A stretch of 64,000 nucleotides of DNA from Candidatus Aminicenantia bacterium (GTDB taxonomy: Bacteria; Acidobacteriota; Aminicenantia; UBA2199), in assembly GCA_965225955.1 (NCBI GenBank), contig CBDDBX010000027.1, positions 9,057-73,056 on the forward strand, given 5' to 3'. Of this stretch, positions 2,760 to 64,000 are shown in pieces. Within the stretch, counting starts at the first letter, position 1. Every line of letters begins with the position of its first letter. The notes below the pieces were generated by a model. It was not told the DNA's origin. It saw only the letters and a list, made by a program, of their open reading frames with translations, and ran no database searches. Both the position numbers and the translations under genes were made by a program.

Positions 2760-3286
2760 AAATCACACAGATATTAACCCAATTGCAGGGATTTAATGTT
2801 GCATTGGTCAGGTATGCCACGCCCTTGCTACCTTTCATTCAGGCGTGCTGGGTAATAAACAGTTAAAAAATTGGTTTGACCTGTTAAACGGGCGCATACT
2901 CCGTTATGGTAGAACCATAACTCCGATGCGCCCCTACAAATCTCTCCTGTATATCAAATTTTGCAGGCCACGGCATAACTCTTATAACAAATTTTGACAT
3001 TAATCACTTGAAAATTAACCGCCAACACACGCCAATAAAAACAAATGCACACGAATAAATACACCGGTTGCAACCACACCTGACCCAATGATAAGAGACA
3101 CGGTTTGTAGGGGCGTATCGACGAGATTGCTATTGCAATCAAGGAGTATGCGCCCGTTTATCAGGCCACGGTATAATCTGAAAATTGTACAACGTGTTTC
3201 TTATTGTCAGATGAGGACTTCTGTTTGCCTTATTGTTAAGGCGTGTGGGTGAGGGGCGATCTAAGGTAGATCGCCGGTTTTATGGA
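2760..3286. repeat. REP/BIME-like modular repeat cluster A. Modules: 'ggcatgcca(c/a)gcccttgctacc', 'ggtttgacctgttaaacgggcgcatactccg..cgatgcgcccctacaaa' (forward at 2873..2940, inverted at 3104..3160), and a 'ctgtatatcaaattttgcagg' tail.
   Basis: The same modules recur at 4786.., 5771.., 6768.., 7065.., 9046.., 9255.. and 63820... Imperfect palindromes with an adjacent CTAC/GTAG. Confidence 0.8.
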
Positions 3287-4648: not shown

Positions 4649-4979
4649 TTGTCCTCCTTTCCCGCATGTTTTGAAAAACTAATAATCTCACAGCAGGATT
4701 TTGCTAAATATTTACCATTAAAACCATTGTATAAGATCCAGAAGAATTGTTCAAAGAATATGAAGATCAATAACTTTGCAGGTGCCAGGCATGCCAAGCC
4801 CTTGCTACCTTTTATTCAGGCGTGCAGGGGAGTGAGAGTCAATCTTGCAGATTCGGAGGATGCCGATTTTATCATAATAATGCATGGGTCAGGCATGCCT
4901 GACACCCTACACAATCATTGTATTACAAGACTTTACAGACCTGTTAAATAATAAGACACACCCAGGAATTTATCATTTT
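4649..4979. repeat. REP/BIME-like cluster B, including a P1 REP copy (gggtcaggcatgcctgacaccctacac at 4886..4912).
   Basis: Contains a 16-nt perfect palindrome gtcaggcatgcctgac plus a flanking CTAC. Shares the 'ggcatgccaagcccttgctaccttttattcaggcgtgcagggg' module with clusters A, C and D. Confidence 0.8.
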
Positions 4980-5498
4980 TTATAATAGTGGTGAATTCAT
5001 CTGATCTGTATCCCAATTTTTAGGATTATTGATTATGTATTCCCGGATAATATTTAATTCCCGGTCATTCCTTATGACTCTTTCCCAATAGTTACGCTGC
5101 CAAATTTTTGTTTTATCCCCTGAATTCATTTCATTTATTTTTCTGGTAACAGTTGATTTGAAAGACCCTATAATTGTAGATAATGATTGTTTAGTGGGTA
5201 ATATGCGAGAATGTAGGGGCTTGCCATGGCACGCCCCTGGAGATACTGTCATACAGATTATGCCGTGTACGTGATTTGGCATTACTATAAATTTATCGAG
5301 GGAGATATTTGAAAAATGGTTGGGGATTTCATTCCAGATAGAAAAGGCGATTTTCCCATACTGGCTTAATGACATTCTGTTATTGATGATATTGCCAAAA
5401 TAATGTTTTTTCTCATGTGTACATATAGTTACATAGTATGCACCAGCAGATGAATAATCCCTCTGGGGTAATCTGATTGATTGTCTGTTATGTTGCAT
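4980..5498 (-). CDS. REP-associated tyrosine transposase (RAYT; IS200/IS605 TnpA-like Y1 HUH enzyme).
   Basis: 172 aa. HUH motif in 'MPNHVHGIICM'; catalytic Tyr context 'IWQRNYWERVIRND'; size and motif order typical of RAYT/TnpA_REP. Flanked on both sides by identical P1 REP palindromes (4886..4912 and 5662..5688). Confidence 0.8.
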   Translation of the reverse strand: MQHNRQSIRLPQRDYSSAGAYYVTICTHEKKHYFGNIINNRMSLSQYGKIAFSIWNEIPNHFSNISLDKFIVMPNHVHGIICMTVSPGACHGKPLHSRILPTKQSLSTIIGSFKSTVTRKINEMNSGDKTKIWQRNYWERVIRNDRELNIIREYIINNPKNWDTDQMNSPLL

Positions 5499-5938
5499 TG
5501 TATATTTTGTTAATATAAAAAATATATGTTATTTGGAGTGATTAATCAAGAAGAAAATTTAAGAATAAATGCAGAGATCTTTGCGTGTGATCTTGTTGTA
5601 ACACCATATTAGAGGATAACGAATGCAGTTCAAGGGGAAGTGTTGTGTTGTTATGTTGCATGGGTCAGGCATGCCTGACACCCTACACGTCATTGTATTA
5701 AAAGGCTGTACAGATCTGTTAAATAATAACTGTACGGCTGATTAAAGGATTGCTGAATTGTGGTTGGGTAGGGGCTTGGCATGCCACGCCCTTGCTACCT
5801 TTTATTCAGGCGTACGGGGGTAATATAAGCAGTTAAAAAATTGGTTTGACCTATTAAATGGGCGCATACTCCGTTTGATTGGTTACGGCAATACTGTTTT
5901 ATATATTAGGTTTGTTTTTCAGATACCATTTGTGAGGG
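5499..5938. repeat. REP/BIME-like cluster C, including a P1 REP copy (5662..5688) and R2/R3 modules (5771..5885).
   Basis: Direct sequence identity to modules in clusters A, B, D and E. Confidence 0.8.
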
Positions 5939-6412
5939 TTACTGTTTTTGTTTGAGAGCCAGAAGTTCTTCTACGTCAAGTTTATCTTTTGTTCTGTTAA
6001 CAAGCCTCTTAGCTTCTATCAGTTCATCCATTCCAAGGATTCTGATTTTAAGGTTATCTACTACATCTTCAACTATATTGTTAAAATATTGAGCTGTTTT
6101 TTCTGTAGAGATACTGGTTATTATATCGATTGCATTTGGCTCTGCTCCAAGGTGAATAGCAGCACCTTCTTTAGTAAAAACTTCCGGGTCAATTCCAGCA
6201 TTTCCAAACCCGAAATCCGTTAACGCAATCATGACTTTTTCTGCGTTTTCTCTATTGGGGTTTATAAGAATATCAAAGTCAAATGTTGCTCTCATGTAGC
6301 CATAATAACTGACTGCATATCCGCCACAGACGGCATAATCTACATTATATTCATTAAAGAGCTCTATCAGCTCCTTCATATCATTTGTCAGTTTCAGCAT
6401 TGTCAAAGTCAA
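5939..6412 (-). CDS. Nucleotidyltransferase-fold protein (Pol-beta superfamily; AbiEii/DUF1814-like 'GG..x..R.T.DFD' motif). Putative toxin/effector of a two-gene module.
   Basis: 157 aa. 'VCGGYAVSYYGYMRATFDFDILI' fits the hG[GS]-x(9-13)-DhD nucleotidyltransferase signature. Its start overlaps the stop of the upstream 62-aa ORF. Embedded between REP clusters. Confidence 0.5.
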   Translation of the reverse strand: MTLTMLKLTNDMKELIELFNEYNVDYAVCGGYAVSYYGYMRATFDFDILINPNRENAEKVMIALTDFGFGNAGIDPEVFTKEGAAIHLGAEPNAIDIITSISTEKTAQYFNNIVEDVVDNLKIRILGMDELIEAKRLVNRTKDKLDVEELLALKQKQ

Positions 6413-6569
6413 GTTTGCGGATTTTTACTATTTTTTCGATTGGTTTGTTCCATGTACCCATGCGTTTTGCTAATAGGAGCATACGTTCAGGACCGGTCAT
6501 CTTGAGAATCTCTTCACGGCGGATCTGATCCTGATCTTCCACTCTGGCGATTTTTACAACCTTTTCCAT
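6381..6569 (-). CDS. Small hypothetical protein (62 aa), operonic partner of the nucleotidyltransferase; candidate antitoxin or regulator.
   Basis: Overlaps the 5' end of the NTase ORF by ~30 nt (or abuts it if the NTase starts at Met12). Charged, helical composition. No recognisable family. Confidence 0.35.
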   Translation of the reverse strand: MEKVVKIARVEDQDQIRREEILKMTGPERMLLLAKRMGTWNKPIEKIVKIRKLDFDNAETDK

Positions 6570-7357
6570 GTGTTAAATATATAATGCAGGGGAGTAGGAG
6601 TCAATCTTGCAGATTCAGGAGATGTCGATTTTGTTTTATTTCCGCATGGGTCAGGCATGCCTGACACCCTACACAATCATCAGGCGGTGATTTGACAGAA
6701 ATTATTACTGTTATCTGAAAAGGACTGTAAAAATTAAAAATTGACGCGCAATATTAATAAATTGTAGGGGCCTGGCATGCCACGCCCTTGCTACCTTTTA
6801 TTCAGCCGTGCGGGGGTAATAAGCAGTTAAAAAATTGGTTTGACCTGTTAAACGGGCGCATACTCCGATACGCCCCTACAAACCGCTTCTCTTATTATCA
6901 ATCGGGGATTGTTTAATAATGTTTTGATTCTAATCTTTATGTTTATTCGCGTGTATTTGCGTCTTTTTTGGCGTCCATTCGCGGTTAATGCTGATTTTTA
7001 AACCGTTCGGGAATTCTGTTTGTCTTATTTTAAGGCGTGCGGGGAGATAAACATCTGATAAATTGGTTTGACCTGTTAAACGGGCGTATACTCCGTTATG
7101 GTGGAACCATAACTCCGATACGCCCCTACAAATCTCTCCTGTATATCAAATTTTGCAGGGCACGGCATAATCTGAAAATTGTACAATGTGTTTCTTATGA
7201 TTGGGTAGGGTGTGGTTGATTTATTCGTGTGTATTTGTTTTTATTGGCGTGTGTTGACGTTCGGGTATTTGTTTGGTGTTTATTTGTGTGCATTGGTGGT
7301 TCCTTCTGTGTTATGTTTCGGGTTTCTGGTATACTTTCGGATTATTATGGAGGAGTT
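6570..7357. repeat. REP/BIME-like cluster D: P1 copy at 6649..6675, an R3 short form at 6837..6880, an R3 long form at 7065..7133, and the module 'ttattcgcgtgtatttgcgtcttttttggcg...cggttaatgctgattt'.
   Basis: The modules repeat nearly verbatim at 9125..9235 and 9340..9440. The 5' leader of the C69 dipeptidase gene is built from these modules. Confidence 0.8.
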
Positions 7358-8941: not shown

Positions 8942-9433
8942 ACAGGCATTCTGCCATTAAATATCATGGGTCAGGCATGCTTCAGCAAGCTCAGGACTGG
9001 TTGCCTGACCCCTTACATACGTTACCGTATTATGAAATCTTTCAGACCTATTAAACGGGCGCATACTCCGTTACGGTAAAACCATAACTCCGATACGCCC
9101 CTACAAACCGTGTTTCTTATTATCAATATGTTTATTCGCGTGTATTTGCGTCTTTTTTGGCGCCTATTCGCGGTTAATGCTGATTTTTAAACCGTTCGGG
9201 AATTCTGTTTGTCTTATTTTAAGGCGTGCAGGGGGATAAACATCTGATAAATTGGTGTGGCCTGTTAAACGGGCGTATACTCCGTTACGGTAAAACCATA
9301 ACTCCGATACGCCCCTACAAACCGTGTTTCTTATTATCAATTGGGATTGTTTAATAATGTTTTGATTCTAATCTTTATGTTTATTCGCGTGTATTTGCGT
9401 CTTTTTTGGCGTTTATTCGCGGTTAATGCTGAT
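8942..9433. repeat. REP/BIME-like cluster E: an interrupted P1 copy (8968..9017 with a ~23-nt insertion), two R3 long forms (9046..9104 and 9255..9319), and duplicated 'ttattcgcgtgtatttgcg...' modules.
   Basis: Direct sequence identity to clusters A-D. The cluster abuts the stop codon of the downstream minus-strand MATE gene. Confidence 0.8.
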
Positions 9434-10837
9434 TTAAACCGTGCGGGTTTTCCATTTGCCTTTTCTGAAGAGGTAGAGTCCTGTTATTGCCATTACTCCT
9501 TCAGCAATGATTATTGCCAGATAGACCCCTTTTGCATCCAGAGTAGAGTGGAGTGCAAGGTATATCGCCAGAGGGATTTCAAGAGCCCAGAAGCAGAATA
9601 TGTTTATAATAGTTGGAGTCATTGTATCTCCTGCTCCGTTAAAGGACTGTACCATAACCATTCCTATTCCGTAGAAGATGAATCCGTAACTTATAAATCT
9701 CAGAGCCGTTGCACCATGCTCTATAAGCAGAGGATCTGCAACCTGATTTATGTTGATGAGTTTTATGAAAACTTCAGGTATTGTAGCGAATACAATTCCC
9801 AGAATCCCCAGAATAGCAACATTGGTCATACTGGCAATCCATACAGCTCTTTCAGCTCTGTCAGATCTTTTTGCACCAAGGTTCTGACCTACAAGGGTAG
9901 CCGCTGCATTACTCAGTCCAAGAGACGGAAGAAGTGCAAAGATGATAACTCTTATGGCAATAATGTATCCTGAAGCTACCTTTGCTCCGAAGTTGTTAAC
10001 TATCTTCATGAGAATGATCCAGCTGGAAGTAACAATAATTGATTGCCCTATTCCACCTATAGATAGTTTGAATATTCTCTTCATTATGGATAAGTCGGGA
10101 ATAAAACTCTTAATATCTACTTTTACAACCCCTTTGCCCCCAAACAGAAGGTAGAACTGGTATATAACAGCAACACCACGACCTATATTTGTGGCAACTG
10201 CTGCTCCGGTAACACCCATTTCAGGAAAAGGGCCTAAACCGAAAATAAGACAGGGGTCCAGAATAATATTCAGAAGGTTTGCGAGCCACAGTACCCTCAT
10301 GGACCTTGCAGCATCACCGGAACTTCTGAAAACAGCATTAATTACAAAAAGAAGAAGAATTACACCATTTCCTGTAAGCATAACCTTTGCATAGTTACTG
10401 CCAATGGCTATAGATTCTGCAGGAGCATCCATAAGATGCAGCAGATCTGTAGAGAAGAAGAAGCCAATTGCTGCAATAACTGCAGATACAGCAATTGCAG
10501 CTACAATAGCCTGTCCTGTTACCTTTGATGCCAGTTCAGGTCTCTTTTCACCAATTCTCCTTGCAACCATGGCGGTTGTTGCTGCACTAAGGCCCACGCC
10601 AATTGAGTATACAATTGTTATAAGGGATTCGGTTGTACCAACAGCTGTAATTGCGGAGTCTCCCAGTTTTGAAACAAAGGCTATATCCACAACTGCAAAT
10701 ATTGATTCCATAACCATTTCCAGAATCATTGGAATGGAGAGGAGAAGAATTGAGCGTCCCAGAGGAAGAGAGGTGTAGTCTCTCTGAACGCCTCGAATTG
10801 AGTCAATAATATCTTTTAGTAGTCTTCTGTAGTTCAT
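9434..10837 (-). CDS. MATE family efflux transporter.
   Basis: 467 aa, ~12 predicted TM segments. N-terminal 'LLLSIPMILEMVMESIFAVVDIAFVSKLG' is typical of the MATE/NorM family. Confidence 0.8.
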   Translation of the reverse strand: MNYRRLLKDIIDSIRGVQRDYTSLPLGRSILLLSIPMILEMVMESIFAVVDIAFVSKLGDSAITAVGTTESLITIVYSIGVGLSAATTAMVARRIGEKRPELASKVTGQAIVAAIAVSAVIAAIGFFFSTDLLHLMDAPAESIAIGSNYAKVMLTGNGVILLLFVINAVFRSSGDAARSMRVLWLANLLNIILDPCLIFGLGPFPEMGVTGAAVATNIGRGVAVIYQFYLLFGGKGVVKVDIKSFIPDLSIMKRIFKLSIGGIGQSIIVTSSWIILMKIVNNFGAKVASGYIIAIRVIIFALLPSLGLSNAAATLVGQNLGAKRSDRAERAVWIASMTNVAILGILGIVFATIPEVFIKLININQVADPLLIEHGATALRFISYGFIFYGIGMVMVQSFNGAGDTMTPTIINIFCFWALEIPLAIYLALHSTLDAKGVYLAIIIAEGVMAITGLYLFRKGKWKTRTV

Positions 10838-56499: not shown

Positions 56500-56589
56500 G
56501 GAGAGTTGGCAGAGCGGTTGAATGCGGCGGTCTTGAAAACCGTTGAGCCTTTGCGGGTTCCCGGGGTTCGAATCCCTGACTCTCCGCCA
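56500..56589 (+). tRNA. tRNA-Ser (anticodon UGA), class II with long variable arm, CCA encoded.
   Basis: Hand-folded: 7-bp acceptor stem GGAGAGT/ACTCTCC, a D arm, anticodon stem GCGGT/ACCGT with loop CUUGAAA (UGA at positions 34-36), a ~19-nt variable arm, T arm CGGGG-TTCGAAT-CCCTG, discriminator G, CCA. Confidence 0.9.
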
Positions 56590-57129
56590 TACATCCCTTT
56601 CAAAATCACAAACTTCTCAAATCAAAGAAAATTCCATATTGAATAGATGCGTCTCAGGGATGAGAATCCCGGAGGGGTTTGATTAAATCAGCTTGCTGAT
56701 TAAAGAAACCTGAGCTTGCGAAGGTTCCCGAAGGGTGAGCGTAGCGAATCAATCTCTGACTCTCCGCCATTTCTTTCTTTTTTAAAATTACAAAATTCAC
56801 AACTTAATAATAATTTTTCATCCTTCTTTATTTCGGGATTCGAACATTTATGTAGTGATAAGCTGCGTTCCTCGCTTATTCCCATCTGCGACATTACTCA
56901 TCCTTCACTTCGTTACGTCCTTCGTTCGCAGACCCTGACTCTCCGCCATACATCCCTTTCAAAATCACAAACTTCTCAAATCAAAGAAAATTTCATATTG
57001 AATAGATGCGTCTCAGGGATGAGAATCCCGGAGGGGTTTGATTAAATCAGCTTGCTGATTAAAGAAACCTGAGCTTGCGAAGGTTCCCGAAGGGTGAGCG
57101 TAGCGAATCAATCCCTGACTCTCCGCCTC
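56590..57129 (+). repeat. Tandem array of three ~180-bp units directly abutting the tRNA-Ser 3' end. Units U1a (56590..56769), U2 (56770..56948) and U1b (56949..57127) each end in a 14-16-nt copy of the tRNA 3' end ('ccctgactctccgcca'). U1a and U1b are near-identical; U2 is unrelated internally.
   Basis: Direct sequence comparison. U1 also carries a degenerate ~40-nt copy of the tRNA 3' half ('ggttcccgaagggtgagcgtagcgaatcaatctctgactctccgcca'). Confidence 0.8.
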
Positions 57130-57167
57130 TCCGCAGAAGCAGTGAGCCTGCGAACTCCTGTAAGGAA

Positions 57168-63689: not shown

Positions 63690-64000
63690 TGGTTGAGGGC
63701 GGATACAATACTTTCCCTATGATAGGGCAAAGTAAGATCCGCCCCTACGGGTGATTTGAGTATTAATATGTGCGTTTAGGTTTTACAAGTATGTTGGGGG
63801 AGTGAGCGGATGGTGGGTTGGTTTGGCCTGTTAAACGGGAGCATACTCCGTTATGGTAAAACCATAACTCCGATGCTCCCCTACAAATCGTGTCTCTTAT
63901 CATAATATCGGTGTTGTTTTTTGTGCTGTTATTCGCAAGCTCACTACTCCTGCGGAGACCCCTGCAAATCGTGTTTCTTATCATGATGTTGGTGTTATTA
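63690..64000. repeat. REP/BIME-like cluster F at the window end. Palindrome 'gggcggat...atccgcccctac' (63694..63748), R3 long form (63820..63880), and a duplicated 'ccctacaaatcgtgt(c/t)tcttatcat' tail.
   Basis: Same module family as 2760..9433. The R3 copy carries compensatory changes (gggagcat / atgctccc) that preserve the stem. Confidence 0.75.

Follow-up and report, generated by a model that had tools for sequence, protein, structure and literature searches.

The stretch of DNA analysed here, 64,000 nucleotides (nt) of a genome assigned to Candidatus Aminicenantia bacterium (GCA_965225955.1, contig CBDDBX010000027.1, positions 9,057 to 73,056; hereafter the window), very probably holds a REPtron of the type known as TnpAREP subclass 2.4 (Quentin et al. 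2018, PMC6006769), which is the same as RAYT group 4 (Bertels et al. 2017, PMC5581495). The locus, which appears to be chromosomal, consists of one gene for a REP-associated tyrosine transposase (RAYT, or TnpAREP) and the repetitive extragenic palindromes (REPs) around and inside it. This is a known kind of system, namely, a domesticated single-strand DNA transposase amid GTAG-tagged repeats, and the locus adds one example from an uncultured bacterium to a family that was catalogued in 2017-2018. It is a compact example of the least-studied REP-associated subclass. Its candidate substrates all lie within 7 kb: a REP type here called P1, a double-foot type (P2), a long-loop type (module C), and a REP within the gene.

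Subclass 2.4 is described by the motifs NH[IFV]H, WQ, and YIxNNP, a variable insertion between β3 and αC, the absence of a tail domain, and 1.5 copies per genome (Table 1 in PMC6006769). The window protein carries NHVH, W133-Q134, and YIINNP, which is the exact signature of this subclass. The Y motif of class 2 is Y---NP and not Y---Q, whereas class 1 (IS200) is recognized by DH[VI]H and Y[IV]ENQ (PMC6006769). As in class 2, REPs with a GT[AG]G foot are found less than 1 kb from the gene (P1 at 4886 and 5662, P2 at 5768, and the internal REP at 5213). The REP traits of subclass 2.4 are present as well: the pattern GTAG-GGG...CCC is found in P2, in module C, and in the internal REP, and P2 has two feet, a REP type reported for this subclass. 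P1 agrees with the subclass 2.4 stem bottom in part only, having GG, a bulge, and then G.

An earlier reading, made from the letters of this DNA alone (the sequence-only reading), had proposed that a RAYT bracketed by identical P1 elements maintains and spreads P1 and possibly the other GTAG-tagged modules. The REPtron itself stands, but the priority among its REPs is reversed: the REPs that travel with this RAYT lineage are those with the foot GTAGGGGC. The REP inside the gene, the direct orientation of the flanking P1 copies, and the doublets formed by P1 and P2 were absent from that reading.

The RAYT gene and its protein

The open reading frame (ORF) at 4980..5498 on the minus strand had been described as a 172-residue protein with an HUH motif, and its translation bears this out: the product contains MPNHVHGII, then WQRNYWERVIRND, then REYIINNP. 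The Pfam profile Y1_Tnp (PF01797), which had been put forward as a check, matches at 30.8 bits (cutoff 23), and the top match among the NCBIfam models is REP_Tyr_transpos (NF047646). A database search returned 1763 homologs, many of them labelled 'REP element-mobilizing transposase RayT' by JGI. Across 119 aligned relatives, Y15, Y21, T24, G35, M73, H76, H78, K114, W133, Y154, and N158 are invariant; T24 is the conserved N-terminal threonine of RAYTs and is retained here. A pseudogene was considered and rejected, as the ORF is full-length and all 11 invariant residues are kept.

In Escherichia coli TnpAREP, Y115 is the catalytic tyrosine and H59 and H61 form the HUH motif (PMC3479197). The HMMER alignment to the structure of this enzyme (4ER8) pairs Y154 with Y115 and N158 with N119, and therefore the predicted nucleophile is Y154 in REYIINNP. 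The sequence-only reading had pointed to the tyrosine in NYWERVIRND; this residue is present (Y137), but it aligns with F98 of the E. coli protein and is not the predicted catalytic one. In the same alignment, the residues of the E. coli enzyme that contact GTAG (W94, Q95, E100, H101, and R104) correspond to W133, Q134, E139, R140, and R143, where the change from H101 to R140 is one that is known in other subclasses. The predicted roles are thus metal binding for H76 and H78, nucleophilic attack for Y154, and GTAG contact for W133, Q134, E139, R140, and R143. The protein stops 13 residues past YIINNP, and its alignment with 4ER8 reaches residue 121 of the 165 in that chain. The motif NP(L/V)(R/K)xG, which follows the tyrosine in the description by Nunvar (2010), based solely on gammaproteobacterial RAYTs of groups 2 and 3, reads NPKNWD in the window protein.

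The AlphaFold2 (AF2) model of the protein has a predicted local distance difference test score (pLDDT) of 86 and a predicted template modelling (TM) score of 0.82, with disorder at residues ~84-105. Its best Foldseek match in the Protein Data Bank (PDB) is 4er8_A, with a root-mean-square deviation (rmsd) of 3.2 Å and TM scores of 0.61/0.63, and the other top matches are the TnpA proteins of IS200, IS608, and ISDra2 at an rmsd of 7-15 Å. All of the top 30 PDB matches are TnpAREP or the TnpA of IS200, IS608, or ISDra2 (probability 1.0). The product is intact, is predicted to act as a HUH/Y1 single-strand DNA endonuclease-ligase, and is probably monomeric.

It is very improbable that the gene and the two P1 copies of the same orientation around it form an autonomous IS200-like element in which P1 serves as left and right subterminal hairpins, as in IS608. 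The fold is indeed held in common with the TnpA of IS608 and ISDra2, but the monomeric TnpAREP fits it far better (rmsd of 3.2 versus at least 7 Å), the motifs are those of class 2 (NHVH, Y---NP) and not those of class 1 (DH[VI]H, Y---Q), and the NCBIfam model transpos_IS200 scores 20.7 bits, below its cutoff of 55. The flanking P1 copies are direct, like the end hairpins of IS200/IS605 elements, and both bear the 5' tetranucleotide on the sense strand of the gene; however, the third P1 of the window and the P1 copies of another genome are solitary. The gene is present once in the 64 kb, as judged by tblastn and a family hidden Markov model (HMM) run on six frames, and its protein cluster comprises a single member, from a single contig. 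There is no TnpB, as the sequence-only reading had it; the ORFs within ~10 kb are all unrelated to it. Relatives of the gene are nearly absent from plasmids (5/72,556, all five large and non-mobilisable). The earlier assignment to the RAYTs instead of the IS200/IS605 transposases is thus upheld by motifs, fold, copy number, neighbourhood, and plasmid rarity alike.

The REP inside the gene

Within the gene and in frame lies the REP GTAGGGGCTTGCCATGGCACGCCC. Its translation, PGACHGKPL, forms part of the loop SPGACHGKPLHS, which connects the HUH strand to helix αC. The REP differs by 2 mismatches from P2 at 5768 and by 3 from P2 at 6764, where the chance expectation is 0. Folding gives a hairpin on either strand, and the loop has low pLDDT and no secondary structure in the AF2 model. 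Owing to two central substitutions, the internal REP of the window has 0 exact 12-mers in common with the flanks, and it was the mismatch-tolerant search that revealed its likeness to P2. An in-gene REP is already described as a hallmark of subclass 2.4.

To place the internal REP among its relatives, 80 related loci from metagenomes and the contig of the nearest homolog (L085) were compared, i.e., 81 RAYT loci. A hairpin with a GT[AG]G foot was found in the variable region of 61 of the 67 scorable loci (91%), while the same search in the rest of the ORF, which is 4x longer, found one in 10/67; the expectation from shuffles is 0.9. The foot of the internal REP in these relatives is nearly always GTAGGGGC...GCCC, and the inner stems vary and covary. 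In the variable region, 12-mers that recur in the flanks make up 5.6% of positions, versus 0.94% elsewhere in the ORF. Internal and flanking REPs match exactly in, e.g., L006, L012, L027, and L037.

The nearest homolog is 59% identical to the window gene in amino acids, 63% in nucleotides, and 43% at third codon positions. It carries a REP at the same codons, and the 24-mer of this REP equals the extragenic P2 of the window. The REP segment is 88% identical in nucleotides between the two, versus 63% gene-wide. The sole central difference from the window's internal REP, TGGCATGCCA to TGCCATGGCA, keeps the palindrome while replacing W by C and A by G. Because this palindrome-keeping swap alters two residues in a segment that is otherwise so well preserved, constraint or gene conversion would seem to act on the DNA or RNA hairpin and not on the peptide. 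An orthologous internal REP with a compensatory change, together with the 91% prevalence, argues for a constraint at the DNA or RNA level on the in-gene palindrome. It is unlikely, though conceivable, that the internal REP is no tolerated insertion but a selected cis-element of subclass 2.4 RAYTs, e.g., an autoregulatory hairpin in the gene's own single-stranded DNA (ssDNA) or mRNA, or a 'master copy' whose protection keeps the enzyme in step with its REP family; in support are the shared site in 61 of the 67 related loci, the invariant GTAGGGGC foot with freely covarying stems, the use of the same codons despite 41% protein divergence, and the central swap that spares the palindrome and not the peptide.

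The in-gene site can also expand. In five of the related loci (L017, L044, L079, L080, and L081), tandem partial REP units lie inside the RAYT variable region and translate as (GTTNM)n, (VGAGS)n, (GRGTLH)n, and (PTPV)n.

Flanking REPs and the candidate substrates of the enzyme

The P1 27-mer GGGTCAGGCATGCCTGACACCCTACAC occurs exactly at 4886-4912, 5662-5688, and 6648-6674, each time on the plus strand (0 in 100 dinucleotide shuffles). The first two of these are the same element on both sides of the gene, as had been reported; of the four P1 copies counted at that time, three are exact and the fourth (8968-9016) is degenerate. The core GTCAGGCATGCCTGAC is a perfect 16-nt palindrome, in line with the sequence-only reading, but CTAC does not directly adjoin it: 'ACC' lies between the two, and GG...(A)CC lengthens the stem with a 1-nt bulge. 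On the minus strand, P1 accordingly reads GTAG-GG-T-GTCAGGC/GCCTGAC-CC. The two copies that flank the gene, both within 170 nt of its ends, form direct repeats of ~72 nt (a 31-nt identical core and a 40-nt tail of 90% identity). The identical REPs bracket the gene in direct and not in inverted orientation, and an inverted bracket arises only from unlike REPs, namely, P1 at 4886 (GTAG on the minus strand) and P2 at 5768 (GTAG on the plus strand). Of 48 related loci, judged by shared 14-mers, 4 were direct-only, 6 palindromic, and 0 inverted-only.

The P1 24-mer is also found, exactly, on four contigs of another metagenome-assembled genome (MAG), CAZRLV01, the one genome matched when a collection of genome contigs was scanned for it. 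These contigs have nothing else in common with the window, and no RAYT was found in the 2.5-7 kb examined around the P1 copies. P1 is a genuine dispersed REP, because the exact copies on these four contigs are solitary and intergenic. REPs are usually species-specific, and it is therefore noteworthy that a 25-mer, GGGTCAGGCATGCCTGACACCCTAC, is identical in a genome of other composition (47-48% GC versus 39% in the window). It may reflect horizontal spread of the REP family or conservation across lineages for a host function.

P1 and P2-type REPs form three head-to-head doublets with members 76-91 nt apart (4778/4886, 5662/5768, and 6648/6764), and therefore the gene sits between two doublets that resemble bacterial interspersed mosaic elements (BIMEs). 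A long REPIN-like hairpin between P1 and P2 was considered and rejected, since the complementarity of the arms is only ~70-80%, and BIME-like is for the same reason the better name. Two REPs look chimeric: in the element at 2800-2831 the arms meet at the apex GGCATGCC, which P1 and P2 share, and the element at 4778-4808, with 80-83% complementarity to P1 and P2, joins an inverted-P1-like part to the right foot of P2. In both, the arms are non-complementary. Such chimeras suggest that, at the apex, one REP type has recombined with another or has been joined to it by a template switch.

In module C, the GTAGGGGCGCAT...ATGCGCCC stems enclose a long structured loop; there are eight copies, with compensatory stem variants. 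Taken over the window, eleven hairpins have a GTAGGGG foot (ten with GTAGGGGC and one with GTAGGGGA), and their stems show compensatory changes. Where the stems of module C copies are mixed, G-T wobbles occur on the GTAG strand and C-A mismatches on the other. The window holds ~16 REP modules in all. Counted in intergenic DNA, ~12 modules lie in the ~2.6 kb found up to 4 kb from the gene, whereas the ~4.9 kb that the other 54 kb contribute have only 2, a ~10-fold difference in density. This clustering at the RAYT fits local proliferation, and a comparable local concentration is known for Marinomonas REPtrons (PMC8266576).

The RAYT lineage seems tied more firmly to REPs with the GTAGGGGC foot (P2 and module C) than to P1, because the P1 core occurs in 0/81 RAYT loci and the P2 pattern GTAGGGGCNNGGCATGCCNNGCCC occurs in 11/85 loci (10 metagenome RAYT loci and L085), typically on both sides of the gene as well as within it. 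The best-supported candidate substrates are therefore P2, module C, and the internal copy. P1, with its GTAGGGTG foot and bulged stem, is a plausible additional candidate, because the GTAGGG foot and the GGCATGCC apex are common to P1 and P2; beyond these, its link to the RAYT rests on adjacency, the doublets, and the hybrid element.

It is somewhat unlikely, though to be reckoned with, that P1 is no substrate of this RAYT, i.e., that the enzyme serves GTAGGGGC-footed REPs only, and that P1 is a relic or belongs to another RAYT and owes its placement to REP crowding. Its absence from the related loci would agree with this, as would the GTAGGGGC foot of nearly every relative, the P2 type of the internal REP and of all REPs of the nearest homolog, and the lack of a RAYT near the P1 copies of CAZRLV01; in addition, genomes with subclass 2.4 average 1.5 tnpAREP copies (PMC6006769). 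However, two identical P1 copies lie no more than 170 nt from the gene ends, foot and apex are shared with P2, P1 and P2 recur in three regular doublets, and they are joined in the hybrid at 2800-2831. Moreover, the E. coli TnpAREP accepts varied stems as long as GTAG and a few other features remain (PMC8266576).

Another explanation is that the RAYT is conserved but no longer mobilises REPs, which would then act as host terminators, stabilisers of mRNA 3' ends, or protein-binding sites and would have spread by recombination or template switching. This is improbable, as none of the catalytic or GTAG-contact residues is lost and none varies among the 119 relatives, the GTAGGGGC foot is kept family-wide with covarying stems, as recognition by a protein predicts, and REPs are ~10-fold enriched beside the gene. 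Such an explanation would accommodate the mostly 3' or intergenic position of the REPs, the weak terminator-like score of P1 on the minus strand, the P1/P2 hybrids, which hint at recombination at the shared apex, and the strong strand-orientation bias of the REPs; in vivo transposition has not been demonstrated for any RAYT (PMC8266576).

Several points weigh against an active REPtron of the type proposed, with P1 among its REPs. The score of the protein against NF047646 is 63 bits, below the curated cutoff of 80, because the match falls into two stretches that are split by the REP-encoded insert; it is nonetheless the best-scoring model, well ahead of IS200 (20.7 bits). The C-terminal tail that aids GTAG binding in E. 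coli TnpAREP is missing, and H123 of that protein is W162 here. P1 is unlike the family's GTAGGGGC type in both foot and stem, and its core is found at none of the related RAYT loci. GTAG lies on the minus strand in 10/11 single-foot REPs (three P1 and seven of the eight module C-type copies), which would be the leading-strand template, since the GC skew is positive on the plus strand throughout the window; one would not expect this strand to have the greatest exposure as ssDNA. Lastly, the enzymes for which biochemistry is published belong to groups 2 and 3 only (PMC3479197, PMC8266576), and cleavage site, strand, and substrate range can be suggested for subclass 2.4 by analogy.

By this analogy, the RAYT would bind a folded REP on single-stranded DNA and read its 5' GTAG(GG) foot. 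It would then cut beside the REP via Y154, with formation of a 5'-phosphotyrosyl link, and rejoin the strands, so that REPs or REP doublets could be copied or moved while the gene itself stays single-copy.

The coordinates of the gene, its motifs, and the REPs are collected in Table 1. Scans for promoters and terminators gave consensus matches at background level only.

Table 1. Features of the RAYT locus and REP copies in the window, with P1 copies of MAG CAZRLV01 in the last row
Feature	Position	Strand	Remarks
RAYT/TnpAREP gene	4980..5498	-	Intact, 172 aa; ORF, Pfam, NCBIfam, fold match
HUH motif	5265..5273	-	H76-V77-H78 inside NHVH (75-78)
Y motif	5022..5039	-	Y154-I-I-N-N-P159; Y154 is the predicted catalytic tyrosine
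Internal in-frame REP GTAGGGGCTTGCCATGGCACGCCC	5213..5236	+	GTAG on antisense strand; 2 mismatches to P2
Promoter-like site TTGATT-17-TATATT	5521..5549	-	Between upstream P1 and ATG; consensus match only
P1 REP downstream of gene	4882..4954	-	Core 4886-4912; GTAG foot on -; 40-nt tail
P1 REP upstream of gene	5658..5729	-	Core 5662-5688; ~164 nt upstream of ATG
Third exact P1	6648..6674	-	5' flank 86% identical to 4823-4885
Degenerate P1 variant	8968..9016	-	22-nt apex insertion, enlarged loop; TTAC/GTAA foot
P2 double-foot REP GTAG-GGGCTTGGCATGCCACGCCC-TTG-CTAC	5768..5798	+	Head-to-head with P1 5662, 81 nt away
Second P2 double-foot REP	6764..6794	+	91 nt from P1 6648, doublet
Degenerate P2/inverted-P1-like REP	4778..4808	+	GCAG foot left, CTAC right; 76 nt from P1 4886, doublet
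Hybrid REP	2800..2831	+	P1-like left arm, P2 right arm and CTAC foot
Module C REP GTAGGGGCGCAT...ATGCGCCC	2890..2937	-	Loop itself a hairpin; -15.5 kcal/mol, z -5.9
Module C REP	3107..3155	+	Sole module C copy with GTAG on +
Module C REP, short form	6854..6879	-	Loop deleted
Module C REP	7082..7129	-	Stem variant GCGTAT/ATACGC, compensatory
Module C REP	9057..9104	-	
Module C REP	9271..9318	-	
GTAGGGGCGGAT...ATCCGCCC REP	63697..63748	-	Different loop
Module C REP	63837..63884	-	Stem variant GAGCAT/ATGCTC, compensatory
P1 in MAG CAZRLV01	L001:368-391, L002:5232-5255, L003:711-734, L004:1709-1732		

Some module C copies belong to a composite unit of ~140 nt (P2-tail, linker, and module C) at 2838-2978, 7030-7170, 9219-9359, and 63785-63925, often followed by the conserved stretch TTTGCAGGGCACGGCATAATCTGAAAATTGTACAA. 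This suggests that the repeated unit consists of larger mosaic elements and not of single hairpins. Interspersed among the REP modules is a distinct, AT-rich family of repeats, ~90-210 nt long and marked by TTATTCGCGTGTATTTGCGTCTTTTTTGGCG motifs, whose copies reach 98% identity (6905-6997, 9094-9186, and 9343-9435, with inverted partial copies at 3020-3065 and 7214-7259). An Rfam search of the window gave no match for any repeat module or for the AT-rich family, and only tRNA-Ser was matched. The 3' end of this tRNA-Ser(TGA), CTGACTCTCCGCCA, is repeated 4x at ~179-nt spacing (56500-57130), and a 195-nt segment is duplicated there at 99% identity (56574-56768 and 56933-57127), a pattern suggestive of successive att-site remnants or of a small tandem duplication at the tRNA.

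Within ~10 kb, the neighbours of the RAYT gene are an M20 peptidase, DUF1848 and DUF7689 proteins, a nucleotidyltransferase (NTase)-like protein, a C69 peptidase, two MatE genes, and sugar-biosynthesis genes, and the contig also carries the housekeeping genes BipA, GS-III, and PurF. A search with the BipA protein matched MAG proteins at 90% and 78%, and its matches in named organisms, at 72-75%, were spread over several phyla. Directly upstream of the RAYT gene lies an overlapping ORF pair on the minus strand, 5939-6412 (157 aa) and 6381-6569 (62 aa). The former has a weak nucleotidyltransferase match (NTP_transf_5), under the Pfam cutoff, and the latter is family-less; the pair may be toxin-antitoxin-like.

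Comparison with known systems

The closest known systems are those of subclass 2.4. Like these, the locus has an in-frame REP as the variable β3-αC insertion, no tail domain, long REPs whose stems have GGG/CCC at the bottom, among them double-foot ones (GTAG...CTAC) less than 1 kb from the gene, a low copy number, a chromosomal context, and a patchy phylogenetic distribution. It differs from them in that the protein, with a single REP insert, has 172 residues and not the median of 194, that the nearest flanking REPs (P1) have the GTAGGGTG foot and a bulged stem instead of the GTAGGGGC type, that P1 copies make direct repeats of ~72 nt around the gene, and that the uncultured host bacterium is AT-rich (39% GC).

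The E. coli TnpAREP/RayT (YafM; subclass 2.2, group 2; 4ER8) is the best structural match and has the HUH motif, the tyrosine, N119, and the GTAG-contact residues W94, Q95, E100, and R104 in common with the window protein. However, the two are ~17% identical, the E. coli motifs are DHLH, WE, and YIHYNP, and the E. coli protein has a C-terminal extension (E161 region) that contacts GTAG and metal and that the window protein does without. The E. coli gene yafM lies between BIMEs composed of two REP types (PMC2817692) and, unlike the window gene, has no internal REP.

With the TnpA of IS200/IS605 elements (IS608, ISDra2; class 1.1), the HUH/Y1 fold is shared, and the subterminal hairpins of these elements, with a 5' guide tetranucleotide and both end hairpins in the same orientation on one strand, resemble the two P1 copies. 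These transposases differ from the window protein by the DH[VI]H and Y---Q motifs and by being obligate dimers with active sites in trans, and the elements are multi-copy and near-identical, often with tnpB, and common on plasmids.

The REPIN-RAYT systems of Pseudomonas and Stenotrophomonas (group 3, subclass 2.5) are alike in having a single-copy RAYT flanked by GTAG REPs, in REPs that form inverted doublets, and in the co-evolution of RAYT and REP. Unlike the window, they have short perfect REPs, inverted flanking REPs, no internal REP, and the motifs DH[LF]H and YI[VI]ANP. Lastly, the Rickettsia palindromic elements resemble the internal REP as palindromes that are tolerated in frame in a surface loop of a coding gene, but they are CGTC-tagged, lack a dedicated transposase, and occur in many unrelated genes with no family-wide conserved site.

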